Shown: positions 5,577 to 57,236 of the stretch, in pieces
Layout of the letters: every line of letters begins with the position of its first letter
Position numbering within the stretch: position 1 is the first letter of the stretch
From: an uncultured Nitrososphaerota archaeon
GTDB lineage: Archaea > Asgardarchaeota > Njordarchaeia > Njordarchaeales > Panguiarchaeaceae
Reading direction: 5' to 3'
Assembly: GCA_964636085.1 (NCBI GenBank)
Contig: CAZWPQ010000005.1
Location: 32,730-89,965, forward strand
DNA length: 57,236 nucleotides
Position numbers and translations under genes: made by a program
The notes under the pieces: model-generated
Told to the model about the DNA's origin: nothing
Seen by the model: the letters and a program-made list of their open reading frames with translations, nothing else
Databases searched by the model: none

Positions 5577-5737
5577 ATAGTTACCCTTATCCTTTATTGA
5601 CAGAAAGTTGCGACTTGGAGATAATGATGTTAAAGTACTAGTAGAAAGTTGCCTTTACCCAAGGTAAAGCTAATGGAGAAAAACGTGGAAAAATGTGAGT
5701 GAATACTAAATAATGATGTATGTTCTAATAACATAAC

Positions 5738-39874: not shown

Positions 39875-40300
39875 TCACTCCTCCACTATTTCTATTTTCA
39901 CATCCTCCTTTTTGAGGCCAAATGTATGATAGTCTTTTGTCAATTCTATCGCTTTTGTTGGGCAATATATCCGGCACAAACCACAGAATATACACTTATA
40001 ATGGATAAACCTAGGGGCTTTCTTTGTTCTAAACCTCTCATCCGGAACCATCTCTATGGCATTTGCTGGGCACACCCTCGCACAGAGCCCACACCCAGTA
40101 CATTTTTTAGCGTTCCACCTTATTCGGCCTCTATAGCCCTCAGCCGCCTCAATAGATTCAAATGGATAGTGGATAGTATATGGTTTCGTAAAGACCTTCT
40201 TAACTACCTCCCCAATAGCACGGGGTATAAAGCGCCCCAAATCCCTCACCACTAAAAAATGGGAAAAACAGGAAAAATTACTTAAAATATATACAATCAA
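39875..40300 (-). CDS. 2x[4Fe-4S] ferredoxin of the NuoI/EchF/MbhN type
   Basis: CTGCGLCARVCPANAIE and CIFCGLCRIYCPTKAIE, preceded by the NuoI-like KPYTIHYPFE. Start uncertain: the track start is TTG at 40300, and GTG at 40252 is plausible. Confidence 0.8.
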   Translation of the reverse strand: MIVYILSNFSCFSHFLVVRDLGRFIPRAIGEVVKKVFTKPYTIHYPFESIEAAEGYRGRIRWNAKKCTGCGLCARVCPANAIEMVPDERFRTKKAPRFIHYKCIFCGLCRIYCPTKAIELTKDYHTFGLKKEDVKIEIVEE

Positions 40301-40309
40301 GCACAGCGA

Positions 40310-43300
40310 CTATTCCTTTGTAAACATACCAATCATGGACTGAACTATATAGGGGCCAATTATCAACAATGCTATTGGTATCGCCACTATGACGAATGCT
40401 ATGTCTTGGAATATGGGTATCGTTGTAAAAGCACTGAGTCCTAGTAAACCAAGGAAGACCAGAGTTCTTATTCTAATGCTACCCGATATACGTCTCAGTT
40501 GATCTCTTACCTCTTTGTCAATAATGCTTTGTGGAACATCATTTTTTTCGTAAATCAGAAGTTTTTTATGAACATAATATATGTCCTTATACGAATTAAC
40601 GATTATTACCGAGAATACTGACACATACGCCGTCAAAAAGCTTATTACTATCGCAGGAGCAACTATCGGGCCAAGCGAGGCCACAACCTCGACCACATAT
40701 TCTTGTGTCCATTCTATCTCATTGCATAAACCAACAATAAACATTAGAATTATTACTGGAAGTATGAATAGCCAGATATTCATCACTGCCCTCATTTTGC
40801 TTATTTTTCTCAGCCTCAACGCCTTTACCGCATCGATGTATATCCTTAATCCATACAACATTACTGACAAAACTAGGCATGCTATAAGTATTAGTAGCGA
40901 TATACCTGTGTCGAATATATATAGGCCATGCATGAGAGGAAGGAAACCCGCTAGTAACACCATTACTATTAGTAGCCCTGACAAACAATAGTATATCTTG
41001 CTTAGCATCCCAACTCCTTGTTCCACATTCATCCTTACTTTTCTTGTAATGATAAAGTGGGTGATCGATACTACTAAGGAAAACACTATAACTGATATTG
41101 CTAATAGGATATAATCCATGTGTCCAAGGCTGAGAGAGGGAACGGATGAATGAACGCGAAGTTTAAACTCTCCTATTGATTCCTTGGCGCCAGAGACATC
41201 CATAATTAGTTTCACAGTATATGTACCATGTTTTAACCCGTCGGTATCTATGATAATTTCATAAGTTCCTGGACTGACTTCTTGAGCCTTATAGACACCA
41301 TACTCTTCGCTCTTGTTTGTTATTACGGCATATATGTCTGCTCCCGTCACCGCTTTTCCTTCTGAATCATAGAGGTATATTCTGACAGTTGAATTTTCTC
41401 CCACCACCACTTCTTTTGTGCTTATAGCAATCTCAACGGATATCTCACCTAGTCTCGTTGGTATACGGATAATCTCAGGAGTTTCACTAGATACTAGAAA
41501 TGGAGCGTCAGTATAGTTAAGTGGGATCCTTGACCCTCCATATGAAACATATATTGTTAGCAGGTATTCTCCGTATTCCAGAAGACCGAGATCAGCAATT
41601 CCAGACGCATTTGTCGTTTTCTCTAGTGTCGCTAAGCCCGTTTTTAGTAAGATAGTAGCATTGTGGATAGGCATATTCTCCTCATCAACAAGTTCTAGGG
41701 AAACATAAACAGCGGGCATCTGTATTGTTATGCTAATACCACCTAAGGGTATATCTACATCCATATATTCTGAAGAAATTTCCTCTATCTCTCCCCCTAT
41801 TTTTCCCCTCACCTTTATCGCTACATCCAAAGGCAAATGGTAGAACGTAACGATCCCGCTCTCGTTTGTCTGCTTATATATCGTAGTTGTACCGATCATT
41901 AGTTCTATTGTCGCGTTGGGTAATATTTCATTTCTACCATCAACAACGACTATTGATAGATCTGCTATATTGAGCAATACATCGTACTCCTGTAATGTAT
42001 CATTGAAAACGACTTCAACAACTGCATATACTGGCAATCCATAGGGTGTGACATATTCACAATATATCTTTAGCTTATAGCCGACTGGCACATTCTCTAG
42101 CATTAAGTAGCTAGAATTTCTCAACTCCACATCAAATATCGGTGGCCCGCCTAGACTTGGTACGATTGATATATATCCATCCTCTACAACTACATTCCTG
42201 TATGCCCCAAATGTTTGGTAGATAAATGAAAAGTTAACTGCTCCTAGCGGTAGGAAGATATAGTTGCATCCCGTACAATTCAACTCTGTTGTTGATTCAA
42301 CCACTAATTCACCAAGCTTATACTGGGCTATTGCCCATATCTTCTCTACCTTCAAAATGGTCCCATTGTATATGAAATATGCCCCCAGCGTAGGGAAATC
42401 CCTCAATATATATGTCCCATTCTCACTCATAAGAATTATATCGAAATCATAGTAGATGGATCTAGACTCTATTAGTACTTTTATATTAGAACCTATTGTT
42501 AGGTTCTTCAACAGGTTTAATGTTCTCATGATTATTATCCCAACACTCACAACATAGTTCACCGTTTCGTTCACATCTACAACATTCATACCCACATAGT
42601 CAATAACCAATATACCCCACTCCGTATAGTGCTTAAGAACAATTGTATACTCGCCAAATGGTACTAGATCCACTACACCACTACCATTTTCAAGATAAAC
42701 AGACGCAATAGTTGTTTGTGATTCGTTATGGATTATCTCGAGCAGAACACCTACTGGATCACCATCCTTGCTTCTTACATTAAATGTTATCTCCGATAAA
42801 GACTGCGGCACCCCTATGTTATAAATGTTTGCGGGCCAGTCCAGTACCGTTACATATTCGGTAGCTATACTTATATCCCTTACATTTCCCACAGATGTTA
42901 TATTAAATGATGTCCAGCCATACAAAATCGGCGCTGGGAACACCTCTATTACGACGAAGCCGAGCTTTCCTGCGCTGAATTTTCCTACATACGTACCGTT
43001 CACAGTGACGTTGAAGGTAAAGAATGGCAATCGTATGGATTCATTATATTCTGGATATGCATAAAGTACCACATCAACAAAATAGAATAGAGTTATATTT
43101 ACCTCGTCTCTGGTAATATTGACCAAGGTACTATTTAATATCGGTAGGTTATATGCCCTTGCTGATGCCGATATCTCCCATATATGGTTCAGTGGCAAAT
43201 AGTACACTTCCAATGTTCCACTTTTGGAAAACGACGCTACTGAACTGCCCGTCGTGTTCAACTTTAAAACTATGTATATATCGGGCATCTTGAATTGTAA

Positions 43301-46249
43301 TCCCATATAGCTACCAAATACGTTTACCTTTGCCAAATAGACGATCCCCAAATCGACATAAACAACATCGTTGCTCACAAGACCGCTTATAGTTCGGGAT
43401 TCTGAGACGACGACCCCCCACTTTCGGCAGAGATATGATACATTGAATTCTATGCTTGGGAGAAATGTTACATTTGGAACCATCTTTATTGTCTTGTATG
43501 TTGAATCTACAAACGTGGTAAACCATGTATCATCTGCTGCCCGTATCCTTAAAGTCCAATTAGACAAACTTTGTCCATCAGCCGTCTTGGGCCTGATCTC
43601 TAGATCATGTAAACCAAGAACCACAACTATATTAGTTATTACCAACGAGGATTGATTATACATCTTGCTATTAAATGCATAGACCTTGAATATCTCCGAG
43701 TAATAAAGAACCGACACATTGCACAGTTTGTTAGACCTATTAGCCAGCGGTATTCCAACAATTTCTACTAGTCCATTTAGGCCCGTGGTATAATTTTGGG
43801 TAGAATACTGCCCTAGTTTTACACAGACCTGTGCTCCAAGGACATTGCGATCATTTTTATCCTTAACATTTACAATGACTTTTCCTAAATCCGCGTATAT
43901 AATTGTATCTAGGTCTGTGTCGTAGTCATATTCGTCATGGAGTGACTCACTGATATTGACCCCTAATACTGGTGGTATATTTGCTTCTACGGTATAATTG
44001 CCGAAGGGCATATCACCGAATTCTGCTATACCCGTAAATGTAGTTTGTGTAACATGGGCACCAGCCACACTCATGTAGCTAGATGAGATTAATGTGAGTT
44101 TAACATTGATGGGGGCATCGATGGTGTCATTGCTAACCTGCGGGTGATACCTAATAACAACTTTGATGTCACAGATGGGCATTACTGGCTTTATCTCCAC
44201 ATAGTCCAGATCTAAGAGGAAGTATGTATACTCCTTCTCTACGTCACCAATAGTGGTATTGGATTTTGCATAAACACTATAAAATCCCGGTAGTAGGGGC
44301 TTGAAGTAATACGTCGTATATAACACGGATCCATTCATAGAGTAGTTAAACCAGTATAGCGTTAATGGCCATGAATAATTATAGATTACCCGAATAGTGG
44401 CGTTTATGTTGGGGGGTTCACGTGGATCTGTGACCCTTTTAACCGCATATACCACCATCTCATTATAGTTTGACTGTATATTTCCAACTGTGCTAGTATT
44501 TGGGTTAACCCATGGGGGATTTGCCATTATATCGGCCACAATCCTAGATATTGCATATATGTCGGCCCACTTTGCTACATCGACTCCTATGACGCAATCA
44601 AGCCTAATTGTATCGTTTGGATATATCTCCACCCGGCCAAATTGAAGACCGAATGTGGAGAATAGCCCATCATATTCCCAGGATTCACCATATGTGCTGT
44701 TCAGATATACGAAATAGGAGCCCTGCTTCGAGTATGGATATAGATCCACAGAACTATTCTTCGGGCTTACAAAATATATTATCCTATCTACCATATATGT
44801 GTCTCCTGTGCTTCCTGGCCCCCATATCCCATAGCTGTAGAGTACATCTGATCTGTTACCATACGCCATTTCTCTTGGGAGACCATATGTATTTCCCTTT
44901 GATTCTCCAGATATATTGAGCTCATTCAGAACCTCCCCCGAGGGGAATGCGGGATCGTCATACCAAGCAAAAACTTGGAAGCCCGATCCATACTCGCTAG
45001 GCGATATGTTAAACCTATTATATCCACCGTATGTGTCATGTGTAAGGGACCTACCACCATTATCGTCATCGATCTTTATGAGTTCACTCCTATTATTAAT
45101 CATCACGATAGATCTGTTGAACCATCTCTGGTATGAGTAGAATGTATAATTTAGGGATAAGTATACATCTAATAGGGGATCATATGTTCCCTCGGAATAA
45201 TATGGATATAGGGGGGCTTGCCTAAATATTAGCTTGGCATACACGGGACCCATAAGAATCTCTTTCTCAACAGCGGCATCAAGAAGGGGGGCATAGACAC
45301 CTAGCAAATCGTCACTCCTCGTATAGAAGTAAAATGCAAGAGTTTCTAGCCTATATGGACCATTTATGGAGTCTTCCTGATCATGATATGCAGATACGCC
45401 TCTCTTAACAACTAAGTCTACATCAAATAATACATCCCTCGTTTGAGCATCAACTATCCTTGTGAGCCCCATTTTTGTGGCCCAAGTGGGTGTGTCTATG
45501 GTTGGTGTTGGTATTTGATTCATTTCTGTTATAAGTATTTCATACTCTAAGTATTCAGTGGTCACTGTTATGAATTTTAGGGGGTTATCAGCGATCGTAT
45601 TATTTGTGTGTATAGACACATTAAGCATTACTCCATCAATCCAGTATGATACATTATCATCACCTATCATGTACCTCTTGGTATAAATTGGTTGGGGCAG
45701 TAAATCGGATAAATTCATGCTCTCGTTGGAATAATAGAAGAAATATACAGAATAGCTCTTAGGCTCGGCCGACGCAAAGAACCACAAGTCAAAATTTTTG
45801 AGATAATCTACTACGGGTGTATTATTGCAGATTTGGAAGACAACAGTATTATTGTCTTTGTCCACGAGGATAAATGATTGGTTATAGGGCTTTGGTATAT
45901 TGGAGGCAGTAAAATTTAGATGCACTCTAATAGGCCAGTCCTCCATGGGATATGATGCATTATTATATACTAGTATGGGTATGCGAAATGGTAAATTTTG
46001 GAAATGCCATGAACTAAGGAGATCTGTGTCCTCCATAATCCTTATTTTTTTGTGTATAATGGGTTTCCCGTCCGATATCATTATCATATATCCATCCTCC
46101 CCCTGTGTACCTGCTATCTTCATAATTTTGGATTCATTTTCTGTCTCATGCGTTGCGTGTTTTGCTTGTTTCACGATACCCGACACAACATAGACAGTAC
46201 TATTAATTACCAGAATTAGGAGAAACATGCAGAGTATCTTGTCCCTCAT
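40310..46249 (-). CDS. Giant envelope protein (about 1980 aa): signal peptide, unique ~700-aa N-terminal region, many prealbumin/Ig-like repeats, and a C-terminal module of 7 hydrophobic segments
   Basis: MRDKILCMFLLILVINSTVYVVSG is signal-like. Repeats carry TTGLNGLVEIVGIP, TNESGIVTFYHLP, TNASGIADLGLLEYGEY and DSEGKAVTGADIY turns. The last 273 aa contain seven hydrophobic stretches. Start placed at ATG 46249 because a TATA-like box lies 25-34 nt upstream. The track ORF extends to ATG 46390. Confidence 0.85.
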   Translation of the reverse strand: MRDKILCMFLLILVINSTVYVVSGIVKQAKHATHETENESKIMKIAGTQGEDGYMIMISDGKPIIHKKIRIMEDTDLLSSWHFQNLPFRIPILVYNNASYPMEDWPIRVHLNFTASNIPKPYNQSFILVDKDNNTVVFQICNNTPVVDYLKNFDLWFFASAEPKSYSVYFFYYSNESMNLSDLLPQPIYTKRYMIGDDNVSYWIDGVMLNVSIHTNNTIADNPLKFITVTTEYLEYEILITEMNQIPTPTIDTPTWATKMGLTRIVDAQTRDVLFDVDLVVKRGVSAYHDQEDSINGPYRLETLAFYFYTRSDDLLGVYAPLLDAAVEKEILMGPVYAKLIFRQAPLYPYYSEGTYDPLLDVYLSLNYTFYSYQRWFNRSIVMINNRSELIKIDDDNGGRSLTHDTYGGYNRFNISPSEYGSGFQVFAWYDDPAFPSGEVLNELNISGESKGNTYGLPREMAYGNRSDVLYSYGIWGPGSTGDTYMVDRIIYFVSPKNSSVDLYPYSKQGSYFVYLNSTYGESWEYDGLFSTFGLQFGRVEIYPNDTIRLDCVIGVDVAKWADIYAISRIVADIMANPPWVNPNTSTVGNIQSNYNEMVVYAVKRVTDPREPPNINATIRVIYNYSWPLTLYWFNYSMNGSVLYTTYYFKPLLPGFYSVYAKSNTTIGDVEKEYTYFLLDLDYVEIKPVMPICDIKVVIRYHPQVSNDTIDAPINVKLTLISSSYMSVAGAHVTQTTFTGIAEFGDMPFGNYTVEANIPPVLGVNISESLHDEYDYDTDLDTIIYADLGKVIVNVKDKNDRNVLGAQVCVKLGQYSTQNYTTGLNGLVEIVGIPLANRSNKLCNVSVLYYSEIFKVYAFNSKMYNQSSLVITNIVVVLGLHDLEIRPKTADGQSLSNWTLRIRAADDTWFTTFVDSTYKTIKMVPNVTFLPSIEFNVSYLCRKWGVVVSESRTISGLVSNDVVYVDLGIVYLAKVNVFGSYMGLQFKMPDIYIVLKLNTTGSSVASFSKSGTLEVYYLPLNHIWEISASARAYNLPILNSTLVNITRDEVNITLFYFVDVVLYAYPEYNESIRLPFFTFNVTVNGTYVGKFSAGKLGFVVIEVFPAPILYGWTSFNITSVGNVRDISIATEYVTVLDWPANIYNIGVPQSLSEITFNVRSKDGDPVGVLLEIIHNESQTTIASVYLENGSGVVDLVPFGEYTIVLKHYTEWGILVIDYVGMNVVDVNETVNYVVSVGIIIMRTLNLLKNLTIGSNIKVLIESRSIYYDFDIILMSENGTYILRDFPTLGAYFIYNGTILKVEKIWAIAQYKLGELVVESTTELNCTGCNYIFLPLGAVNFSFIYQTFGAYRNVVVEDGYISIVPSLGGPPIFDVELRNSSYLMLENVPVGYKLKIYCEYVTPYGLPVYAVVEVVFNDTLQEYDVLLNIADLSIVVVDGRNEILPNATIELMIGTTTIYKQTNESGIVTFYHLPLDVAIKVRGKIGGEIEEISSEYMDVDIPLGGISITIQMPAVYVSLELVDEENMPIHNATILLKTGLATLEKTTNASGIADLGLLEYGEYLLTIYVSYGGSRIPLNYTDAPFLVSSETPEIIRIPTRLGEISVEIAISTKEVVVGENSTVRIYLYDSEGKAVTGADIYAVITNKSEEYGVYKAQEVSPGTYEIIIDTDGLKHGTYTVKLIMDVSGAKESIGEFKLRVHSSVPSLSLGHMDYILLAISVIVFSLVVSITHFIITRKVRMNVEQGVGMLSKIYYCLSGLLIVMVLLAGFLPLMHGLYIFDTGISLLILIACLVLSVMLYGLRIYIDAVKALRLRKISKMRAVMNIWLFILPVIILMFIVGLCNEIEWTQEYVVEVVASLGPIVAPAIVISFLTAYVSVFSVIIVNSYKDIYYVHKKLLIYEKNDVPQSIIDKEVRDQLRRISGSIRIRTLVFLGLLGLSAFTTIPIFQDIAFVIVAIPIALLIIGPYIVQSMIGMFTKE

Positions 46250-46273
46250 AAAAAGACACCACATTAAGTAACG

Positions 46274-46283
46274 ATTATTAAAA
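46274..46283 (-). promoter_or_regulatory. TATA-like box (TTTTAATAAT on the minus strand) for the giant gene
   Basis: Plus-strand attattaaaa at 46274-46283 lies 25-34 nt upstream of ATG 46249. Confidence 0.4.
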
Positions 46284-46413
46284 CAAGCGAACACATAATA
46301 AAAATTTTTCATGATAAGTTTGCTAAAAACACTAGGCGTGTTAAGAAAACTTCTATTTGATCTAGTTTGGATCACTCGGCAAGGATGCATAGGAGAAAAT
46401 AGACGTATATGGG

Positions 46414-47556
46414 CTACTTTCGGATCACGAATTCATCAATTATCTTCCCTCCAAAATCCTTATACTGAAAAACAAGTTCATTATCCCTTACTTCCATTAT
46501 TGCGTATCCATATCCAAACGCATAACACTCAACTAAGGAATCATCATAGATGGCAAAATTCGGTATGCCGCCCGTCGGGCCAAGAATAACATATTGTGTT
46601 CCATTAATATATAGTCTGGCATATGCATGATCATGGCCCATTAATACGAGGTCTGGCTTATACATGTTTAAAAGGGGGAGTATTGTTTTGGGTATGTCAG
46701 GATGCGTATGATGTGGGATTATGTCAAATGGAGGTATGTGTAGTAGGACTATTTTCCATAGGTTATTCGATTCTGCATACTCCATTGCCTCCATAAACAT
46801 GCTTTTTTCCTCTTCTGGGAACACAAAGTTTTCATAATCCGCTACATATAACGCAACAAACATCACGTTAGAATACGTAAAATAGTACCAATACTCACGG
46901 CCCGGGAGTGCCATATATTTCCTATAGTTTTCTTTTTCTCCACGCATTACTTCATGATTGCCAGCAATTGCCATTAATGGATGACAGCTAGCAATTTTCA
47001 TTTCCCCAGTTAGAAAGGCCGCCCAATTCATTTCATGCCCCATATCCACCATATCGCCACAATGTATTATAAAATCATATTCTTCCTGCTTTGCTACACT
47101 TATGAACCTCCTAAAAGCACCATAGCTTGGGGCGTGGGTATCCGCATGAATAAGCACCCTAAAAGCACCACCAATGGGAGGAGCCGTTCTAAATCTATAA
47201 ATCTTTGACCAATTATACATCTGCCCATTTTCGTAGTAGCCTATCACATAGTTATATTTGGAGTTGGAAGCGAGCCCGGTTATCATTACATGGAACAATT
47301 TTGATTTGTTTTCTATATCTATAATCCTCCTAAATGTCGCGTTCCATATTATTATGTATCCACTCCTATTTTCTCCCCAGTGCCAACTTATCGTAATTGT
47401 TGTCTCAGGGTCAGAACTCCAAGACAACCATATTGCGTTCCAATTCCTATCGAGGTAATATCTTATGTATCCATATATCATCGGGGCTAATGTAATTATG
47501 AGTAGTATTGATAGAGAGATCGTTTTTTTGACAACAACTATTATCTTATGGTTCAT
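46414..47556 (-). CDS. Membrane-anchored calcineurin-like metallophosphoesterase with a purple-acid-phosphatase-type N-terminal domain
   Basis: N-terminal TM ISLSILLIITLAPMIYGY, FN3-like IWLSWSSDPETTITISWHW..YNYVIGY, and the motifs IHADTH, CGDMVDMG, AGNHE, LLHIPP and MGHDHAY. Confidence 0.8.
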   Translation of the reverse strand: MNHKIIVVVKKTISLSILLIITLAPMIYGYIRYYLDRNWNAIWLSWSSDPETTITISWHWGENRSGYIIIWNATFRRIIDIENKSKLFHVMITGLASNSKYNYVIGYYENGQMYNWSKIYRFRTAPPIGGAFRVLIHADTHAPSYGAFRRFISVAKQEEYDFIIHCGDMVDMGHEMNWAAFLTGEMKIASCHPLMAIAGNHEVMRGEKENYRKYMALPGREYWYYFTYSNVMFVALYVADYENFVFPEEEKSMFMEAMEYAESNNLWKIVLLHIPPFDIIPHHTHPDIPKTILPLLNMYKPDLVLMGHDHAYARLYINGTQYVILGPTGGIPNFAIYDDSLVECYAFGYGYAIMEVRDNELVFQYKDFGGKIIDEFVIRK

Positions 47557-48412
47557 TATCTCGCGCCCCTCTAATTGGATATATCCCTATCTCCTCGACA
47601 TTTGCATATTTTAGTAGAATGTTCTCTAACAATTCTAGGGCTTTATCAAAAAAGTATCGTCCAACAAGCAGTAGACTAATCATATATCCAATAGTCATTG
47701 CCAATGAGGGCATATAACCTAGCAGGATCGCATAAATAAAAAGTTTTAGAGCGAGAGATCTATCATGAAATATTGACAACAATTCATAATACATAGGCAC
47801 TAAAGTTGCTATTGACCCCATCCCAACAATAAAAATTAGTATGAATTGAAGAAATCTGCTCGGATAGCTCAGCGTTAAGTTATCCTTGAAATGTCGTATG
47901 CTAGACATGTCACGAATCATGAATGCGGAAACCAAAATTATGAGTATTAGAGGCATAAACTTCCTCATGTAATCAACCGCAATGATGTAGTAGATTATCA
48001 TCTCCATCGATCCTACTGTTGTCAGCATCTTGGTTAGTATTACTACTGGACCGAACAGTATGTATCCATATAAAAAAATCGCAATATATGAAAATTTCGG
48101 CTTTTTGTCCAACTTCACTGGCCTCGCAACACGCAGTTTCTTCTCTAGAAAAATCTCAAGCCCCAGCAGAGGAGATACTATCGTTATAATAATCGGAATA
48201 GCAATAATCCCTAGGAGTATACCCAACATCATTTGGGTTAGGGATAGCCATGCTATCAGTATATCTAGAGCCACAAATACATCTGATTGACGAAATATTA
48301 GCGATTCTACATAGCGCCAAAGGAATGATAGAAGTTCGTATCCTATGAATGATATGGCCGCAACTATCATACATTTGATGGCCTCATTTTCAGGTATATT
48401 TACTTTTTTCAT
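47546..48412 (-). CDS. Polytopic membrane protein, unknown family
   Basis: 288 aa with about 7-8 hydrophobic segments and an ATG start. The stop overlaps the start of the phosphoesterase gene by 11 nt, suggesting translational coupling. Confidence 0.6.
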   Translation of the reverse strand: MKKVNIPENEAIKCMIVAAISFIGYELLSFLWRYVESLIFRQSDVFVALDILIAWLSLTQMMLGILLGIIAIPIIITIVSPLLGLEIFLEKKLRVARPVKLDKKPKFSYIAIFLYGYILFGPVVILTKMLTTVGSMEMIIYYIIAVDYMRKFMPLILIILVSAFMIRDMSSIRHFKDNLTLSYPSRFLQFILIFIVGMGSIATLVPMYYELLSIFHDRSLALKLFIYAILLGYMPSLAMTIGYMISLLLVGRYFFDKALELLENILLKYANVEEIGIYPIRGARDNEP

Positions 48413-48455
48413 CGACTCCGCATCCCCCTGATTATAAACATATATGAAAAAATAA

Positions 48456-48866
48456 TTATTTTTCTTTCATAAGCAGGGGTTCCCTTTCAATTATTAAAAA
48501 CCGGCCCCTAACATCGACAACATATGCATAGTCGCCCCGCTTAAAATTGCTCTTCACAGAGAAAGCCCTCCATAGTTCTCCCCTAAAACGCACATATCCA
48601 TCCTTTGTAGGTGTTATTTCGTCTAGAACTGTACAGATGCCACCAATCATGGGGTATGGAGACTCAGTTCTATCCGCTACTTGGACTGGCCTAATTCTTT
48701 GTGATAGCCTTATTATCATGTACAGCAATACTGATGTGATAATCAGCGACGTGCATGCAAAAATAATTGAGGCGAATGTAGCGTGGCTTGTCATTAGCAT
48801 CATTATTATCAAAAACATGAAAAACATCAGAAAGTAGAATAGCGAAACAACATCCATAGCATCCAT
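48456..48866 (-). CDS. nfeD: NfeD-family membrane protein (short form with a C-terminal OB-fold)
   Basis: Two N-terminal TMs, then GGICTVLDEITPTKDGYVRFRGELWRAFS...GDYAYVVDVRGRFLIIE. It lies directly downstream of the stomatin gene, the classic pairing. Confidence 0.8.
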   Translation of the reverse strand: MDAMDVVSLFYFLMFFMFLIIMMLMTSHATFASIIFACTSLIITSVLLYMIIRLSQRIRPVQVADRTESPYPMIGGICTVLDEITPTKDGYVRFRGELWRAFSVKSNFKRGDYAYVVDVRGRFLIIEREPLLMKEK

Positions 48867-48872
48867 TCACCA

Positions 48873-49760
48873 CTACTTCTTCTTTTTGGCGGAACTCACC
48901 GCCAACGTAGCCGCGAGAGCGCTCTCCAAATTACCAAAAGTTGTTGGATATAGAAGTATTGTATTCTTTTCCTTCGCTACTTCAACCAGCGTAGTCAGTT
49001 CCCGCAATCGAAGGGCAACTGGATTTTTCTCGTAATATTCAGCAGCCTCCGCCATTATCTTTGCAGCCTGCCTTTCACCTTCAGCACTTATTATCTTTGC
49101 CCTTCTCTCCCTCTCCGCCTCAGCTTGCATGGCCATCGCTCTTATCATGCTTTCTGGAAGATATACTTGCTGAAGCGCTACTGATATTATTTTTATTCCC
49201 CACTCCCCAACTACACTATCTACTTCGTCCTGTATCAGCTTTGCCATTTCCTCACGTTTTTGAAGAATCTCATCAAGCTCATGAATACCCAAAACTTCTC
49301 TCAAATTGGCTTGACCATATTGAAATAGAAGCCTTGGAATATTTTTAACAGTTATAAATGCCTTCCCTGGATCCATTATGCGGTATATTATTACTGCATC
49401 TACCTTTATATTTATATTGTCTTTTGTGAGTATTTCTTGTGCTGGAATATCTATTGTTTGGACTCGAAGGTCAAACCTATAAGCCTTATCCAGTATTGGG
49501 TCTATGAATATTACTCCAGGGCCTTTCATACCGACATATCGTCCCAGTCTGAGCACTGCTGCACGTTCATATTCTGGGATTACCTTAACGCCAGCGGCTA
49601 ATAGAGGAAGACCAAAAATTAAGAGCATTACAGCTAGGAGTGTCAATACATCAGCTATAGTAACCGTGGTTGTCACCATCATTGATGATACTGCAATCGC
49701 CCATAATATTAACGGAATGAGAAATGGAGTTATTGGTTTGGAGGCCAAGCACGACACCAC
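48873..49760 (-). CDS. SPFH/band-7 stomatin-like protein
   Basis: VIPEYERAAVLRLGRYVGMKGPG.., ..TKDNINIKVDAVIIYRI.., and a coiled Ala/Glu-rich tail MQAEAERERRAKIISAEGERQAA. GTG start. Confidence 0.9.
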   Translation of the reverse strand: MVSCLASKPITPFLIPLILWAIAVSSMMVTTTVTIADVLTLLAVMLLIFGLPLLAAGVKVIPEYERAAVLRLGRYVGMKGPGVIFIDPILDKAYRFDLRVQTIDIPAQEILTKDNINIKVDAVIIYRIMDPGKAFITVKNIPRLLFQYGQANLREVLGIHELDEILQKREEMAKLIQDEVDSVVGEWGIKIISVALQQVYLPESMIRAMAMQAEAERERRAKIISAEGERQAAKIMAEAAEYYEKNPVALRLRELTTLVEVAKEKNTILLYPTTFGNLESALAATLAVSSAKKKK

Positions 49761-51075: not shown

Positions 51076-51093
51076 AAGCAAGTGTCTAGAGCA

Positions 51094-51576
51094 ATGGAGA
51101 TAATACTCACATACTTGCTCAATAAGCAGGGTGGAAAAGCCACTTTTGGCGACTTCTATTCCCTCACAAAAATCCCCAAGAGAACCCTAAAGAAATTTCT
51201 CTGGTATTGTCAACGTAGAAAATTGATGAAAAGGGAAATAGGAACATATTACATAACTGATCTTGGGCGCGACTACATAAAGAATGTACCCATAATCACT
51301 ATTGGAAACAAAATCTTCATTACTGTTACCGATGAACGAGTCCATATGATAACCCTTGGCAGGAAAATGAGGATAAGAGAATTCGAAAACGACTTTCTTA
51401 AGAAACTTATACTAAAGAAATGCATAAAGCGCGACGAGATAAGATCATCAAATGATAGACGCATGCTTATGAGCGCGATCAGGCTCTTCAGACTACTAAA
51501 AATGGTGAGACTTAGAGGAGACTCAATCTGCATTGAGCCAAATAGTGAGATATTAAGAACACTTGGGATCTTCTAA
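51094..51576 (+). CDS. Putative winged-helix DNA-binding protein
   Basis: MEIILTYLLNKQGGKATFGDFYSLTKIPKRTLKKFLWYCQRRKLMKREIGTYYITDLGRDYI resembles an archaeal wHTH. ATG at 51094 (the track starts at GTG 51082). Family not recognised. Confidence 0.5.
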   Translation: MEIILTYLLNKQGGKATFGDFYSLTKIPKRTLKKFLWYCQRRKLMKREIGTYYITDLGRDYIKNVPIITIGNKIFITVTDERVHMITLGRKMRIREFENDFLKKLILKKCIKRDEIRSSNDRRMLMSAIRLFRLLKMVRLRGDSICIEPNSEILRTLGIF

Positions 51577-52388
51577 ATTCCTTCCAAAATTACTATCTTT
51601 TCCCCTTGTCTTATATTCAGCAGCTGCTTGGCGGATCCCTTGTTAACCGCTATTTCGACATAGCCATGTGATGTCTGCCTCAGCAATAATAGCGAGCCTT
51701 CTGGGGCTTCTCCATAGGTATTGACAACTCGCGCCGTGTATGTCTTATTTCTCACTAGAATCCGTACCTTCTCTCCATATTTAAAATCTGCTTCGCTAGT
51801 GGGCATGTTAAGAATTATGTTTCCAAACCCATCACATACAATCATCTCCAATATATAGCTCCCCTCCTTCTTCACAGGTTGAGGAAACTCCATCCTAGTA
51901 ATAGATTCCTTCGAAATTTCTTTCCCCAAAGATACGATATCTATACCCCTCGAAATGTGTGCAGCGGCGGGAGCAAATATATCCCTCCCATGAAAAGTTG
52001 TACTTACTTTATCCAACATATATGACCTGTTTGTTATCTCTATAATCTTCTGAATACCATCTTTTTCTGCAGCCCATACTAGACATCCATTATCAGGGCC
52101 AACAAAATAATAGTTATCGGTTTTTATTGCTATTGGTTTCCTCTTTGTCCCAACCCCAGGGTCGACGACACAACAAAATACAGTGTTTTTGGGGAAATAC
52201 CTGTATGTTATGAGAAGATAAAACGCGGCTGCTCTAATATTATATTTTGGGAGATTATGCGCTAGATCAACAATTCTCGCTTGTGGATTGATCCCGAGTA
52301 TTACCCCCTTCACGACTCCTACATACGGATCTGACGCACTAAAGTCTGTCAGGAGTGCTATTATTCGTGCCTCCATAGGGATCCACAT
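51573..52388 (-). CDS. SAM hydroxide adenosyltransferase / SAM hydrolase family protein (DUF62)
   Basis: IALLTDFSASDPYVGVVKGVILGI, VDLAHNLP, FCCVVDPGVGTKRKP and VGPDNGCL. The start overlaps the 3' end of the ThiF-like gene, by 28 nt from ATG 52388 or 16 nt from ATG 52376. Confidence 0.85.
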   Translation of the reverse strand: MWIPMEARIIALLTDFSASDPYVGVVKGVILGINPQARIVDLAHNLPKYNIRAAAFYLLITYRYFPKNTVFCCVVDPGVGTKRKPIAIKTDNYYFVGPDNGCLVWAAEKDGIQKIIEITNRSYMLDKVSTTFHGRDIFAPAAAHISRGIDIVSLGKEISKESITRMEFPQPVKKEGSYILEMIVCDGFGNIILNMPTSEADFKYGEKVRILVRNKTYTARVVNTYGEAPEGSLLLLRQTSHGYVEIAVNKGSAKQLLNIRQGEKIVILEGI

Positions 52389-53098
52389 ACCTCACAGTTT
52401 GGACTCCTAAGCACTTCTAGGTGCTCGAACTCCATGCTATATCCATCATAATATATAATCTTGCCTATAGCTGGCTTGCCTATTCCTGTTATCAATTTTA
52501 TTGTCTCTGTTGCTTGGATAGATCCAATAATACTTGCAGTGGTACCTAGAACTGCTATACCTTCCTCATCTCTGACTCCGCGTATTATACAGTTTAGACA
52601 TGCTGTCTTTCCTGGAATTATGACCATTACTTGGCCCGATAACCCCTGGATACCCCCATGAACCAATATTTTCTGGTGTTTGACACAGGCCTTATTTAGA
52701 ATCAAACGCGTGGCCCAATTATCTAAGCAATCCACTACTATATCGACCCCATCTATGAGCCCATCCACATTTTCCTCCGTTATGGATACATCCAACGGCT
52801 CTATCTCCACATTGGGATTCATCCTCATCAATTTCTCCGCTGCACGATATACCTTCTTATGCCCCAGATCATCCATGTTATATAGTATTTGTCTATTAAG
52901 ATCAGGAAGGGAAACTATATCCCTATCCACTAATCTTATATGGCCTACGCCTACTGCAGCAAGGTATAGTGATACAACAGAGCCAAGCCCCCCTACACCC
53001 ATGATGCTAACGCTGGCTTTTTTAAGATTTTCTTGGCCCTCCACACCAAAAAGCGATAACTGTCTACTATATCTAGACTTTTCCTCATCAGTCAGCAT
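52361..53098 (-). CDS. ThiF/MoeB/UbaA-type E1-like adenylyltransferase (no rhodanese domain)
   Basis: YSRQLSLFGVEGQENL, nucleotide loop IMGVGGLGS, LVDRD..SLPDLNRQ, and two CxxC pairs (CLNC and CEVC). 245 aa. Confidence 0.85.
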   Translation of the reverse strand: MLTDEEKSRYSRQLSLFGVEGQENLKKASVSIMGVGGLGSVVSLYLAAVGVGHIRLVDRDIVSLPDLNRQILYNMDDLGHKKVYRAAEKLMRMNPNVEIEPLDVSITEENVDGLIDGVDIVVDCLDNWATRLILNKACVKHQKILVHGGIQGLSGQVMVIIPGKTACLNCIIRGVRDEEGIAVLGTTASIIGSIQATETIKLITGIGKPAIGKIIYYDGYSMEFEHLEVLRSPNCEVCGSLWRHE

Positions 53099-53101
53099 GT
53101 C

Positions 53102-54724
53102 CTACCTCCTTCTCCTAGATCCAACAACGTGATCTATAACCTTTCTAAAGCATTCCTTATCTAGGCACTCCCTAATACCCATCTCATCCGCAATATCTGC
53201 CATTATGTCATAGACTATTCTTCTCTGCACATTTTCTGATACCTCTGCACACACGATGTGGAATAAATCGCGGCCATGAAATTTTGTTGTGTATGTTCTC
53301 AGAATAAGCTTTGCGTCATGTATCTTTGCTTCTGTAACTGTTCTACTTATGCTCGATAATGTTACCGCGATCGATGGATCATTAAATAGTAGGTATGCGA
53401 ACTTTGTATGCCTTAGTGAGCACTGAGGAGTTGGCCCCATTCGGGGGTCGAATATGATTAAGTACATATTCTTAATGCCAATATAGCCGAGGAAATCATT
53501 TATTTTTTCACTAAGTTCTATGCGGGGTATGTCGAGAATTTTTTTAAGGCTTCTACTTACTTCGCCAAATCCTAATATGTACTTTTTCGCTCTCTCAATG
53601 TTCAGTACATATAGTTTGCCACCTATATTGTCAAGTATGCCTGAACCGTAGAGCGCAGCAACAATATCTGGAGAAATACCTGCTTCCTTAGCCTCTCTAA
53701 TATCAAATGCACCCATCTCTATTACCTTATTCAGAACTCCAGGTTCAATTGTCTTAAATTTCGCCCTTTTTTCCTTCAATGCAAGTTCACGCATTTTCTC
53801 CTTCAAGTATTTCCATTGCCTTATCATAAACTCAAGAATAGCACCAAGGAACATGCCAAATATTGCACCAATGGTCGCTCCAACATAACCGACAATATCC
53901 TTTCCGACTTTCTGGGTACCTATGACTACCCAATATGGCATAATATTCCTCACATATCCATACCAGCCCAATATCGAAAACAGGGTTCCCAATGCCGTAC
54001 TACCAAGGCCTCCTAGCCATCCATAGAAGACACCTATCACAGTGGCCTTGACATAGGGACTTAGGCTACTAATAAACATAGCCAGCTTGCTTGGGGAGTT
54101 AAGACCACATATAGCACCAACAAATATGGACAATAATGCTCCCATTGTGGATAATAATAGACCCATTATTATAAACTTCGCCACATTTTTTACTACCTCA
54201 TGTATGTACTTTAATTTTTCGGATATCGATACCTTTTGTATAAGCATGTTTGCATAGGTTATTAAGGAGTGGACTATAATTGCGATCGGTATACCTATAA
54301 GGCCGACCACGCCCCCAACAAATATCCCATCAAAAAATCCTACAAGCACACACATAATCCTGTTTATAAATTCCCTAGCTTCTTCCCTTCTAAATAGTGT
54401 GCTCCTGGGCAAATATATCTCGATGGATGCTACATGAAAACCTATAAGAATCCCTAGAATGAAAGATGGATATGAATCTTCTGGAAAAATGTTTGATCTG
54501 ACAAGGGATAGCCATTCTAGAAATAATTTTATATACCATCCCTCCGTCGGGAAAGTTATGCTATTGGATGCATAGATAATCAATAGGGATATCGACATAG
54601 AGAGATACCATGATGGCACCAATACCAACAAAAAAAGTATGTCTCGTATGCTCTTAACCTTTATTCTCTCGATCCCAATTATTATGAGGATTGATAGTGT
54701 GAGTATAATAATGGCATCGATCAT
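53102..54724 (-). CDS. Polytopic membrane protein (about 8 TM) with a ~220-aa cytoplasmic C-terminal region, possibly a Roadblock/longin-like alpha-beta domain
   Basis: The N-terminal 300 aa are hydrophobic and Gly-rich (GVVGLIGIPIAIIV, GWLGGLGSTALGTLFSILGW). A charged helix KEKMRELALKEKRAKF follows. The tail ..LSEKINDFLGYIGIKNMYLIIFDPRMGP..IAVTLSSISRTVTEAKI..AKLILRTYT..DLFHIVCAEV..VQRRIVYDIMADIADEM has an alpha-beta-beta-alpha-beta-beta-alpha-looking pattern. Confidence 0.6.
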   Translation of the reverse strand: MIDAIIILTLSILIIIGIERIKVKSIRDILFLLVLVPSWYLSMSISLLIIYASNSITFPTEGWYIKLFLEWLSLVRSNIFPEDSYPSFILGILIGFHVASIEIYLPRSTLFRREEAREFINRIMCVLVGFFDGIFVGGVVGLIGIPIAIIVHSLITYANMLIQKVSISEKLKYIHEVVKNVAKFIIMGLLLSTMGALLSIFVGAICGLNSPSKLAMFISSLSPYVKATVIGVFYGWLGGLGSTALGTLFSILGWYGYVRNIMPYWVVIGTQKVGKDIVGYVGATIGAIFGMFLGAILEFMIRQWKYLKEKMRELALKEKRAKFKTIEPGVLNKVIEMGAFDIREAKEAGISPDIVAALYGSGILDNIGGKLYVLNIERAKKYILGFGEVSRSLKKILDIPRIELSEKINDFLGYIGIKNMYLIIFDPRMGPTPQCSLRHTKFAYLLFNDPSIAVTLSSISRTVTEAKIHDAKLILRTYTTKFHGRDLFHIVCAEVSENVQRRIVYDIMADIADEMGIRECLDKECFRKVIDHVVGSRRRR

Positions 54725-54749
54725 TATATTATACCCGTAGGGTCAAGCA

Positions 54750-55604
54750 TTATACTTTGCCCCATCTCTTCCTCGCTTCGTCCATATACTTTATGAGGGC
54801 CTTATTACAATAGTTTATTGCATCGCCTAGTTGTGATTTATAATCATAAACACCCGCCACCACAAAATCACTATTAACGCGCCTCGCAATCGCCAAGAAT
54901 CTTATGTTCTCGAATTTTATCGCCATATACTCTAGTGATCCTCTTTTGTATATCGGATAGAATACCTCCTCCATGAACTTTAAGGCCTCCTTATTACCGA
55001 CAACACTTATTGGGAGCATATGACTATCAATCAAAAACGCGGCTCTAGCATTTGTATTCACTCGAAGGACATCCACAATAGCATCTATCCCGACCTTCTT
55101 TATATCTCCATAGAACATTCTCAAAAGCTCATACATGCTAAATACGTCCAAGACACTTGTATTTATCATCCTTATCCTGTATTTCTTGATGTCGTCCTTT
55201 GGGAATATATTATATATTATAGTCTCAGCTCGCTTAGCCGTTTTTTTGTCTTGCTTATGAGCCACAAAAATGACCTCCATATCCTTTCTCGCATACTTCT
55301 TTATCATCTTCTTGAGATACTCCCAATATTGCCTAGCCTCTGGAAATCTCGTGGGATCTCCAGCATCAACTACATAACCCAATCTATCAGCTAAGGGAAA
55401 ATACTGCTCATAGAAAACCTCTATGTTCCTAAAGCGGGCCTGTCCCGGTACAACATAAATCGAGAGGTAATGCTTCTTATACGTCTCAATGTTATTCGAC
55501 GCAATATATGGCTTCATGGCCTCGCTCTTATCCATATTCTCGAGAAAAACCTTGATGGAGGTCTTTCCAGCCTCATCTAGACCACATAGAACAACATTCG
55601 GCAA
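54750..55604 (-). CDS. MglA/Arf-like small GTPase fused to a C-terminal Roadblock/LC7 (MglB-like) domain
   Basis: G1 is GLDEAGKTS, G3 is VVPGQ (the MglA-type xVPGQ with the usual Asp missing), and G4-like is AHKQD. The C-terminal ~110 aa ..NARAAFLIDSHMLPISVVGNKEALKFMEEVF...EYMAIKFENIRFLAIARRVNSDFVVAGVYDYKSQLGDAINYCNKAL looks like Roadblock. TTG start. Confidence 0.7.
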   Translation of the reverse strand: MPNVVLCGLDEAGKTSIKVFLENMDKSEAMKPYIASNNIETYKKHYLSIYVVPGQARFRNIEVFYEQYFPLADRLGYVVDAGDPTRFPEARQYWEYLKKMIKKYARKDMEVIFVAHKQDKKTAKRAETIIYNIFPKDDIKKYRIRMINTSVLDVFSMYELLRMFYGDIKKVGIDAIVDVLRVNTNARAAFLIDSHMLPISVVGNKEALKFMEEVFYPIYKRGSLEYMAIKFENIRFLAIARRVNSDFVVAGVYDYKSQLGDAINYCNKALIKYMDEARKRWGKV

Positions 55605-55910
55605 ATCCTACACCCATACCCCACTATTAAATATATCAAAAAGTTATCCTATATTTGATACACCACCCCAACCAATCAGATTCCCCATTCATCCCTATTC
55701 TAAAAGCATCGATACACATATCCCCAATGCTTTCTGTAAATATTATCAATTATCAAAATATATGCATAATGTCGCAACATGACAACTGTCGGGCTAAATG
55801 TCGAGTCTATTAGAATATTAATGATGCTTTCTCTTCACTAAGAACACAGGCGCTTCATGCGAACTCTATCACTACCCCATGTTTTATCCCTATCCTATAT
55901 TCGCTCTCCT

Positions 55911-56222
55911 TTAGTACGACAAGGGGTCTATTTGAAATCCCGCCATAATCTCATCAAATTTCTCTGCAAAGGCCCTTGTTATCTTGCGCCAGTCTCGTTT
56001 TTTAGCGAGGATAACCACCCTTTGAACAACATAATCATATTCCTTAGAGACATGTGCTATGAAGTCCTTGTCCGCGGTAATTATTATCGCATCCTCCACA
56101 GACGCCATAGATATTATTTCAGAATTGCTCATGCTTAGTGGTGGGCGGATAACTTGATGACCCTTTTTCTTCAGAATCCTCTCAATCGAGCGGGGAATCA
56201 TCTCATCCAAAAGAAAACGCAA
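55911..56222 (-). CDS. DUF5615 (PIN-like, Mut7-C-related) putative toxin
   Basis: MRFLLDEMIPRSIERILKKKGHQVI...ISMASVEDAIIITADKDF. It lies 6 nt downstream of the DUF433 gene. TTG start. Confidence 0.75.
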   Translation of the reverse strand: MRFLLDEMIPRSIERILKKKGHQVIRPPLSMSNSEIISMASVEDAIIITADKDFIAHVSKEYDYVVQRVVILAKKRDWRKITRAFAEKFDEIMAGFQIDPLSY

Positions 56223-56228
56223 TACGGA

Positions 56229-56666
56229 TCACTTCTGGAATGCTATTTTATGCTCAACCGAGCGTGCTAGTGGCTCGATAATATCCCTATATTCTATGAG
56301 GCTCTCTACTGTGTCATATGTTAAGAATGGATACTCCTCCAAGATCTCTGTGATCGAGTAGCCAGAGTCCAGCATATCATATATGTGGAGTACTGGAAGA
56401 CGCGTACCAGCAACAACAACCATACCACAGACCTTATTTGGATCTATCTCATAATACTTTGAGGCCTCTATGTATCTCTCAATAGACTCGCGATTCTCCA
56501 CAACATATTTTAGGATCCTGTCGGACAGAAATGGATACTCGTCAATTATTTCTTCGATACCGTATCCTGAGTCAATCATCTCTAGGATTATTGCGACCTC
56601 TAATCGGGTCCCCACAATGACTGGTCTGCCACCACAAACCTCTGGACGTAACTCAATATACCTCAT
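56229..56666 (-). CDS. DUF433 antitoxin-like protein containing two tandem DUF433 domains
   Basis: Copy 1 is RPEVCGGRPVIVGTRLEVAIILEMIDSGYGIEEIIDEYPFLSDRILKYVVEN. Copy 2 is DPNKVCGMVVVAGTRLPVLHIYDMLDSGYSITEILEEYPFLTYDTVESLIEY. Confidence 0.8.
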   Translation of the reverse strand: MRYIELRPEVCGGRPVIVGTRLEVAIILEMIDSGYGIEEIIDEYPFLSDRILKYVVENRESIERYIEASKYYEIDPNKVCGMVVVAGTRLPVLHIYDMLDSGYSITEILEEYPFLTYDTVESLIEYRDIIEPLARSVEHKIAFQK

Positions 56667-57236
56667 CGCACACTACACCCTTTCACATCACAAACATAAA
56701 CTCGCATTAAAACATAATGCTTCTAACTATAAGAAGAATAACAAAAAAATACATGTAACCACGGTGGTAATAATATGAGTAACTCTAGTGCTACTAAAGA
56801 TTCCCTAATTAAGGCACGGAGCAGTACATTTTTTTGCCACCATTAAAATAGCATTAACTAATAAAACAATATACATAGAACAAAATATAAAACAAACAAA
56901 TTTCCATACCAAACAATGAACAAAGAAAGCACGCATATAGACCAAAAACCCAAACACACAATATTGCTGTCTCTACTTGATAAAACATGAAAAGTTGTGG
57001 GACATCTATTGGACACCCGCATTGCCTTTCGACGCCACCGTTTATAGACACTAGACCACATGCAACATAACTAATTATGGTGATTGTTTTATGCCTGTCC
57101 CATATGGGACACACACACGAAGCCTCGGGTGGAAAGTGTTTCGGATATATGACATAATTTTTGTTGTTTGGGGGTTAGGTTGGATAGGGACACTATCTTC
57201 GATACGTCTGCTTTTAATCATATGCTATGTTTAATG

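Follow-up and report, generated by a model that had tools for sequence, protein, structure and literature searches.

Organization of the locus

The DNA analysed here is a 57-kb stretch (57,236 nucleotides, termed the window, to which all positions refer unless a related locus is named) from an uncultured Asgard archaeon of the Njordarchaeia (NCBI GenBank assembly GCA_964636085.1, contig CAZWPQ010000005.1, positions 32,730 to 89,965 of the forward strand), and the subject is a quartet of genes near its end that encode a small GTPase, a membrane protein, an E1-like adenylyltransferase of the ThiF/MoeB type and a DUF62 S-adenosylmethionine (SAM) hydrolase. An earlier sequence-only reading had described four minus-strand genes at 51573-55604, separated by a 25-nucleotide (nt) spacer, a 3-nt spacer and a 16-28-nt overlap, and this arrangement proved to be exactly as stated. 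Its assignments of ThiF (PF00899), DUF62 (SAM_HAT_N and SAM_HAT_C) and GTPase (matching Arf and Gtr1_RagA) were confirmed by Pfam, and the second product, named there a membrane protein, is polytopic, with at least six strongly hydrophobic segments. The genes, their domains and the associated signals are as follows (aa, amino acids; C-dom, C-terminal domain of the membrane protein).

54750-55604, minus strand: GTPase gene, 284 aa, TTG start; small GTPase domain (aa 1-165) and a C-terminal alpha/beta domain of about 120 aa (aa 166-284), Rag-like architecture (Pfam, AlphaFold2 (AF2), Foldseek and alignment)
53102-54724, minus strand: membrane-protein gene, 540 aa
53822-54724, minus strand: membrane domain of that protein (aa 1-301), at least six hydrophobic helices plus Gly-rich helices, unique to the clade
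53105-53743, minus strand: cytosolic module of that protein, with a predicted winged helix (aa 328-373), a long helix and the alpha/beta C-dom of about 140 aa (aa 399-540)
52361-53098, minus strand: ThiF/MoeB-type adenylyltransferase (E1-like) gene, PF00899, 245 aa
51573-52388, minus strand: DUF62 SAM hydroxide adenosyltransferase / (R)-SAM hydrolase gene, SAM_HAT_N and SAM_HAT_C, 271 aa, or 267 aa from the likely start at 52376
53105-53109, minus strand: Shine-Dalgarno GGAGG of the ThiF gene, within the terminal Arg codons of the membrane-protein gene and 6 nt before the ThiF ATG (53098)
55611-55640, minus strand: upstream signals of the GTPase gene (sequence and alignment with four orthologous upstream regions)

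The 25-nt spacer separates the GTPase gene from the membrane-protein gene, and the 3-nt spacer separates the latter from the ThiF gene, a distance that becomes 5 nt and 4 nt in the related loci L001 and L004, respectively. The ThiF and DUF62 frames overlap by 28 nt, or by 16 nt if DUF62 starts at the ATG at 52376, as it does in the public gene call of this product (P0018, 267 aa), and an overlap (-4 to -31 nt) was present in every lineage having both genes. The membrane-protein C-terminus RRR(R), whose codons contain the GGAGG, is kept in homologues, and translation of ThiF would be coupled to the membrane-protein gene. Upstream of the GTPase gene, an AT-rich TATA-like stretch, TTTGATATATTTAATA, lies at 55640-55625 and a Shine-Dalgarno-like GGGTG at 55615-55611, 6 nt before the TTG start. 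Common to all five orthologous loci were a non-ATG GTPase start with Pro as the second codon, a GGTG located 6-9 nt before that start and an AT-rich TATA-like block 35-55 nt upstream of the gene, which fit a putative promoter ahead of the GTPase gene. Sense-strand T runs of at least six occurred only inside the membrane-protein gene (T7, at 54636-54630, and T6) and could act as archaeal pause or termination sites. It is probable that a single transcript, started at a promoter ahead of the GTPase gene, covers all four genes.

Tight spacing is common in the window: about 12 of the roughly 27 same-strand neighbour pairs (~45%) lie no more than 30 nt apart irrespective of function, and the tight runs include functionally unrelated genes (ferredoxin, giant surface protein, metallophosphoesterase, NfeD and Band_7), with a run of clearly unrelated genes at 39875-49760. 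The spacing therefore argues for co-transcription and not for shared function. The earlier operon reading is supported by the short spacers, the embedded GGAGG and the recurrence of gene order and junctions in L001 and L004.

Gene neighbourhoods in relatives

A gene-neighbourhood survey, which the sequence-only reading had put forward as a check, found the quartet in the same order (GTPase, membrane protein, ThiF, DUF62) and with tight junctions in L001 (19.8 kb) and in L004/L011, while L002 and L010 carry the GTPase and membrane-protein genes and then reach the contig end. Across relatives, the GTPase and membrane-protein genes were always found together (5 loci) and were absent together. The quartet was split in L007/L008 (two NCBI metagenome-assembled genomes) and L097/L098 (Logan), where a gene for a TrmB-like protein of 388 aa is followed by ThiF after a 15-16-nt spacer, by DUF62 (-8 nt) and then by reverse gyrase on the other strand, with neither a GTPase nor a membrane-protein gene in these loci. 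Identity to the window proteins was 58% for ThiF and 53-57% for DUF62 in L007/L008 and L097/L098, against 54% and 55%, respectively, in L001, which has the full quartet.

The TrmB-like gene also stands just upstream of the GTPase gene in L001, L003 and L004, so that in relatives the GTPase-membrane pair occupies the slot between the TrmB-like gene and ThiF. Its product (388-391 aa) combines a TrmB/MarR-like winged helix at the N-terminus with a long region resembling a coiled coil (weak apolipoprotein-type matches). The next gene downstream was always that of the GTPase or of ThiF, and the ThiF-DUF62 unit may originally have begun with the TrmB-like gene, which was located as follows.

L001:7399-8565, plus strand: TrmB-like gene
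L004:837-2012, plus strand: TrmB-like gene
L007:6092-7258, plus strand: TrmB-like gene
L098:1108-2274, plus strand: TrmB-like gene

In the window, the corresponding position holds a toxin-antitoxin-like pair of genes 6 nt apart, a DUF5615 (PIN/Mut7-C-like) gene at 55911-56222 and a tandem-DUF433 gene at 56229-56666, both on the minus strand, so that the DNA upstream of the quartet has undergone rearrangement here.

Further out, the association dissolved. ThiF did not adjoin DUF62 in a Njordarchaeales genome (L005/L006; DUF62 50% identical) or in a Desulfurococcaceae genome (L009), where the neighbour of DUF62 is an NMN adenylyltransferase (NMNAT) gene, as in Sulfolobus. Among 80 metagenomic DUF62 loci, 59 of them with at least 800 nt upstream and with flanks totalling 398 kb, none had a ThiF homologue in the flanking DNA. 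All four genes occurred together only in closely related, broadly syntenic genomes, namely the window and the L001 and L004-type lineages. L001 additionally shares with the window the downstream genes for a 164-aa protein (orf164), a HAD phosphatase, a NikR-like protein, Band_7, NfeD and a metallophosphoesterase; since this synteny is long-range and includes unrelated genes, conservation of the quartet within the clade carries little functional weight. These comparisons show that the quartet is made of two separable modules, with the GTPase and membrane-protein genes gained or lost together and ThiF-DUF62 existing without them, and that the ThiF-DUF62 link is itself limited to the clade. The survey thus bore out the recurrence of the quartet in close relatives, and it spoke against the earlier proposal of a single membrane-associated signalling or modification pathway of all four genes, because two sister lineages have only TrmB-like, ThiF and DUF62 genes and because DUF62 occurs without ThiF further out.

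The GTPase

The GTPase matched Pfam Arf (PF00025; 6.5e-17, 62 bits against a cut-off of 22.3; aa 4-162) and, over the G domain only (aa 4-162), Gtr1_RagA (8.8e-07, 29 bits against a cut-off of 22). Its G1 (GLDEAGKTS), G3 (VVPGQ) and G4 (HKQD) motifs were invariant in a 12-sequence alignment, the G3 pattern being V/I-V/I-P-G-Q with near-invariant P53, G54 and Q55, so that the catalytic Gln is kept, and the Asp of the Arf-type DxxGQ (WDVGGQ) was absent in all 11 homologues covering the region. A His in G4 (HKxD-type) is typical of Rag/Gtr GTPases, and the G3 motif of MglA is also xVPGQ. No amphipathic (myristoylated) helix precedes beta1 in the GTPase, whose N-terminus is MPNVVLCGLDEAGKTS with beta1 and the P-loop starting at residue 3; the N-terminal extensions of the homologues P0006 and P0007 are not conserved, and neither a CaaX nor another C-terminal lipidation motif was found in the protein. 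Given the lack of both helix and lipidation motif, any membrane association would be expected to run via a partner.

The AF2 model of the GTPase had a predicted local distance difference test score (pLDDT) of 80-94 over the G domain and below 45 over the C-terminus. Foldseek returned Arf/Arl proteins, Asgard ArfR, Gtr1-Gtr2 and LokiRagO, with Arf/Arl at the top in both the Foldseek and the PDB searches, and the full-length Foldseek alignments extended over 255-259 columns to Gtr1/Gtr2 (4arz) and the Lokiarchaeal RagA-like 8yl2. The C-terminal domain was predicted, at low pLDDT, to follow an alpha-beta-beta-alpha...alpha order. It had no Pfam match to Robl_LC7 even at E<=10, its profile had no PDB sequence match, and hhalign against DYNLRB1, LAMTOR2 and MglB (each verified as Robl_LC7) was not significant. 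A Roadblock identity of this domain is plausible, in that it fits the predicted fold order and the full-length Foldseek alignments, and no sequence method confirms it; accordingly, of the label GTPase-Roadblock given by the sequence-only reading, the GTPase part stands and the Roadblock part is compatible with these structural comparisons only.

Close homologues were few, with only 12 (63-74% identity) among 5.8 billion proteins and two loci from a scan of 185,579 GTDB species genomes, and the L007/L008 assemblies contributed none of these. No second GTPase-Roadblock paralogue was present in the window or in any related locus.

GTPase-Roadblock fusion architectures are known in Asgard archaea (Tran et al. 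2024, PMC10933270; LokiRagO PDB 8yl2), and for MK-D1 it is reported that GTPase genes do not, as a rule, share operons with regulators (Tran et al., PMC10933270). The window protein resembles these Rag-like fusions in having a small G domain followed by an alpha/beta domain of about 120 aa, in its Asgard host and in a profile match to LokiRagO that runs beyond the G domain. It differs from them in that its G domain scores best as Arf, its G3 motif VVPGQ is without Asp, its C-terminal domain is not recognisable as Roadblock by sequence, no paralogous GTPase is adjacent and the gene is linked to a membrane-protein gene.

The membrane protein and its C-dom

The 540-aa membrane protein had no Pfam or NCBIfam match. 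A hydropathy scan revealed at least six strongly hydrophobic segments in aa 1-301, followed by a charged, soluble tail of 240 aa, and AF2 predicted the membrane domain as all-helical (full model pLDDT 42). Only three full or partial homologues were found among 5.8 billion proteins, and the membrane domain had two N-terminal fragments among 1.84 billion representatives. By contrast with this clade-unique part, an exhaustive HMMER search of the same 1.84 billion representatives returned 20 relatives of the cytosolic module at E<=1e-3, and those from outside the Njord clade matched only the C-terminal ~220 residues of the protein. The typical family member has one N-terminal transmembrane helix, a predicted winged helix and a C-dom of about 140 aa, and some consist of the C-dom alone (150-160 aa). 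Within the C-dom, a conserved IKN...FDxxxGP hairpin motif was present. Several distant C-dom proteins are encoded directly downstream of Ig-repeat surface proteins with a C-terminal anchor.

No relatives of the C-dom were found by sequence in Pfam or the PDB, and it shows no detectable similarity to the C-terminal domain of the GTPase; the family to which it belongs is small and previously unannotated. Foldseek with the poor C-dom model gave matches at E>=0.02 only, a mix of PAS/Cache and longin (Lst4, Nprl and FNIP2) folds. Three candidate identities were considered. A Roadblock identity found no significant match in Pfam at E<=10, PDB profiles or hhalign (0.7%). A longin identity, raised by the resemblance of FDxxxGP to C9orf72/FLCN-type proteins, reached an hhalign value of 1.1% (P = 0.049, not significant) against the C9orf72 N-terminus. 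A DUF62-like domain in the membrane protein was indicated by Pfam (SAM_HAT_N, E 0.008), by BLASTP (1e-4 on TKFHGRDLF) and by hhalign with a Njord-only profile (78%); the signal collapsed with the full family profile (5.7% with 17 members, 1.7% without the Njord members), and only 1 of 17 C-dom family members matched SAM_HAT_N. The Njord motifs FDPRxGP and TKFHGRDLF mimic those of DUF62, and this identity was rejected as a coincidence of motifs and not homology.

A second occurrence of the C-dom was found in a neighbouring gene of the relatives, which is not present in the window.

L001:6119-7288, minus strand: 389-aa gene, diverging from the TrmB-like gene; also in L003, L010, L098 and L008
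L007:4912-6000, minus strand: orthologue of the 389-aa gene (362 aa in L007/L008)
L004:1-741, minus strand: orthologue of the 389-aa gene, partial

In its product, a small P-loop domain (GPPGSGKST) with weak Pfam matches to Arf, MMR_HSR1, DO-GTPase2 and SRPRB is joined by a Pro-rich linker to a domain at the C-terminus that is homologous to the C-dom along its whole length. By hhalign, this C-terminal domain matched the C-dom family at 95.8% (E 7e-9) and the non-Njord subset alone at 96.1% (E 3e-9), against no more than 0.4% for the controls (GTPase C-terminus, Roadblock and DUF62). In the L007 orthologue, the P-loop is degenerate (GPEKSSNF), suggesting a pseudo-NTPase there. One gene thus joins the C-dom to a GTPase-like domain, and another, lying right after a GTPase gene, joins it to a membrane anchor; this Rosetta-stone pattern ties the C-dom to GTPases and is the best available evidence that the two work together.

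The ThiF and DUF62 enzymes

The ThiF protein matched PF00899 over its full length (2.8e-72, 243 bits) and carries the ATP-binding motif GVGGLGS, NRQ, DCLDN and two zinc CxxC motifs, features shared with MoeB, ThiF and UbaA. Unlike those enzymes, it scored below all NCBIfam equivalog cut-offs (MoeB 238 vs 449, PRK08328 228 vs 339, UbaA 189 vs 450), it has no rhodanese or E2 domain, and no Cys occurs in the crossover loop (between the first CxxC and the IGS(I/L)QA helix) of any ortholog, so that the enzyme looks adenylyltransferase-only and thioester or persulfide chemistry on it is unlikely. No plausible small open reading frame (ORF) ending in GG that could encode a ubiquitin-like protein or sulfur carrier was found within the 57-kb window, nor were sulfur-carrier, Met or Cys biosynthesis genes, and no JAB or E2 gene lies near ThiF. 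The ThiF ortholog of the L007/L008 lineage (L007:7274-8008, plus strand) has lost both CxxC motifs (CLRR; C-terminus ...YFCWGECHE) and kept its nucleotide-binding motifs. Membership in a defence system was considered and rejected, PADLOC having returned only the generic E1 part of CBASS E1-E2 for ThiF (63 bits).

DUF62 matched SAM_HAT_N (1.9e-58) and SAM_HAT_C (2e-19), and the alignment showed the family-invariant Asp, Arg and His motifs TDF, DPGVG..R and TFHGRDIF. In Sulfolobus acidocaldarius, (R)-SAM hydrolase activity has been verified for DUF62, whose gene shares a conserved operon with those of a triphosphate tunnel metalloenzyme (TTM) and an NMN adenylyltransferase (bioRxiv 10.1101/2025.08.29.672840). 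The window protein resembles the (R)-SAM hydrolases Saci_0719, HVO_0781 and PH0463 of that work in its two Pfam domains, its motifs and its probably thermophilic host; it differs in its partner, which is ThiF instead of TTM/NMNAT, and in scoring below the cut-offs of the NCBIfam (R)-SAM hydrolase models (197-204 bits; 204 vs 350). A reverse gyrase gene was present in the loci of relatives, which points to thermophily and would fit a need for (R)-SAM removal; judging from this gene content, the host is probably thermophilic.

Interpretation and alternatives

We consider it reasonably probable that the locus is a composite transcription unit, in which a clade-specific GTPase/membrane-partner cassette (54750-55604 and 53102-54724) stands ahead of an older ThiF-DUF62 bicistron (52361-53098 and 51573-52388). 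The cassette is restricted to a narrow Njordarchaeia subclade and combines a polytopic membrane protein with an Arf/Rag-like GTPase, the C-terminal part of which is an alpha/beta (Roadblock-like) domain. The cytosolic C-dom of the neighbouring protein may serve as the docking site that brings the GTPase to the membrane, with contact made through the nucleotide-dependent G domain of the GTPase, its C-terminal domain or both; this would yield a membrane-tethered GTP/GDP switch following the logic of Rag-Ragulator or MglA-MglB. The bicistron would consist of two housekeeping-type enzymes, the MoeB/ThiF-type enzyme activating a ubiquitin-like sulfur carrier, encoded elsewhere, at its C-terminal glycine, and the DUF62 hydrolase clearing heat-generated (R)-SAM to adenosine and methionine. 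The cassette would have been placed before the bicistron, most simply by insertion. Co-expression of the four genes is accordingly likely and a common biochemical pathway not likely; a putative interaction with the cytosolic domain of its partner probably tethers the GTPase to the membrane or regulates it there, and ThiF and DUF62 probably run their usual, separate housekeeping reactions on their presumptive substrates.

Several points weigh against this account. The contact between GTPase and membrane protein is inferred, AF2 modelled both C-terminal domains poorly (pLDDT 30-45), and the distant C-dom proteins had no GTPase gene beside them in the loci examined. Every locus that contains the membrane-protein gene and continues beyond the 3' end of that gene has ThiF(-DUF62) directly after it; the cassette was thus never seen alone, which leaves room for a functional tie to ThiF. 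The ThiF-DUF62 overlap has been kept at 50-58% identity despite rearranged neighbours, so that this pair may be more than neutral neighbours. Furthermore, the polarity, insertion as opposed to loss, is presumed.

Three other explanations were weighed. The proposal that all four genes form one membrane-associated module, in which a GTPase switch controls both ThiF-catalysed adenylation or thiocarboxylation and the cleavage of SAM by DUF62, draws on the contiguity and coupled junctions in the window, L001 and L004, on the ThiF Shine-Dalgarno sequence embedded in the membrane-protein gene and on the survival of the block through the upstream rearrangement in the window, where DUF5615/DUF433 replace the TrmB-like gene. 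We nevertheless regard it as quite improbable, because two similarly diverged sister lineages have ThiF-DUF62 but neither the GTPase nor the membrane-protein gene, the four genes do not co-occur outside the clade, the synteny between the window and L001 extends equally to unrelated genes further downstream, the 57-kb window holds no nearby gene for a ubiquitin-like substrate, and the apparent DUF62-like motif in the membrane protein is spurious. A second possibility is that ThiF and DUF62, perhaps with the TrmB-like protein in relatives, are a real clade-specific functional pair and the GTPase cassette an unrelated insertion; one speculative example would be sulfur-carrier-dependent homocysteine/methionine synthesis coupled to the recovery of methionine from damaged SAM. 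Overlapping frames (-4 to -31 nt) persist in at least five lineages at 50-58% identity, with a downstream neighbour that differs (reverse gyrase versus orf164/HAD), yet none of the 59 informative DUF62 loci elsewhere has an upstream ThiF, other archaea pair DUF62 with NMNAT, the window lacks sulfur-carrier, Met and Cys biosynthesis genes, and the L007 ThiF has lost both CxxC motifs. A functional ThiF-DUF62 pair, which we rate as unlikely, would be compatible with the composite unit.

At the other extreme, the adjacency of all four genes, GTPase and membrane protein included, might be neutral in a compact genome, with the genes unrelated or independently transcribed. The close spacing of ~45% of same-strand neighbours whatever their function and the position of the distant C-dom relatives away from GTPases agree with this, while the constant joint presence and joint absence of the GTPase and membrane-protein genes (5 loci) and the presence, in relatives, of a neighbouring gene that fuses the C-dom to a GTPase-like domain speak against it, and we find neutral adjacency very improbable.

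Within the composite unit, the further step of seeing the GTPase-membrane pair as an archaeal analogue of a membrane-anchored GTPase platform (with a Ragulator or a GEF/GAP, that is, guanine nucleotide exchange factor or GTPase-activating protein, role) built on the C-dom is tentative, and we hold it to be possible although doubtful. In the proposed logic, it resembles Rag-Ragulator and MglA-MglB in that a GTPase without a lipid anchor is positioned by a small alpha/beta platform, membrane-bound or polar. Ragulator itself is lipid-anchored via LAMTOR1 and built of Roadblock dimers, whereas the anchor in the window would be polytopic, and the C-dom shows no detectable similarity to Roadblock or to the C-terminus of the GTPase itself. 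Should the platform reading be true, Asgard archaea would have their first GTPase/membrane-partner pair defined from genome sequence.

Asgard archaeal GTPase-Roadblock architectures and the ThiF and DUF62 families were already known; what is new is that a GTPase of this kind is constantly paired with a polytopic membrane protein, that the C-dom constitutes a family without previous annotation and that it also occurs fused to a GTPase-like domain. Asgard archaea have many eukaryote-like small GTPases, the partners of which are almost unknown, and a GTPase that always travels with one membrane protein offers a concrete pair for biochemical testing. The combination of a GTPase, an E1-like enzyme and a SAM hydrolase looks like a new modification pathway and is best read as a cassette before a housekeeping bicistron, and the quartet should not be annotated as one system.

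Genomic setting and other features of the window

The source names attached to homologues assign the locus to Candidatus Njordarchaeota, an Asgard lineage. The rest of the window is ordinary chromosome (NrdD, dCTP deaminase, PmbA/TldD, an RsmB-like methyltransferase, BtpA, an ABC ATPase and Band_7/NfeD). A tRNA scan found no tRNAs in the window, no Rfam RNA family matched anywhere across it, and no viral relatives were found in IMG/VR. The window also contains four giant ORFs.

3-5654, minus strand: giant ORF of at least 1884 aa, running off the window start
5768-14668, minus strand: giant ORF, 2966 aa
14771-20011, minus strand: giant ORF, 1746 aa
40310-46390, minus strand: giant ORF, 2026 aa

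They had only patchy matches to Ig-like, CarboxypepD_reg, DUF3712 and LEA_2 domains, which suggest that the four proteins are probably surface-exposed. Distant relatives of the cytosolic module are typically encoded immediately after surface proteins of this kind (L092, L093, L095 and L096).

Convergent with DUF62, the 164-aa ORF lies at 51082-51576 on the plus strand, the two 3' ends overlapping by 4 nt; it is kept in L001 (67% identity), has moved beside the HAD gene in L007 (40%; weak HTH_45 match) and probably encodes a small winged-helix protein. The last ~570 nt of the window (56667-57236) are AT-rich with CA-rich patches and contain no convincing ORF. In the interior of the window, a 122-aa ORF at 31307-31675 on the minus strand encodes a retropepsin-like aspartyl protease (gag-asp_proteas, 2.2e-08) in an archaeal chromosome context, adjoining genes for an ABC ATPase and a bacterial-PH-domain protein.

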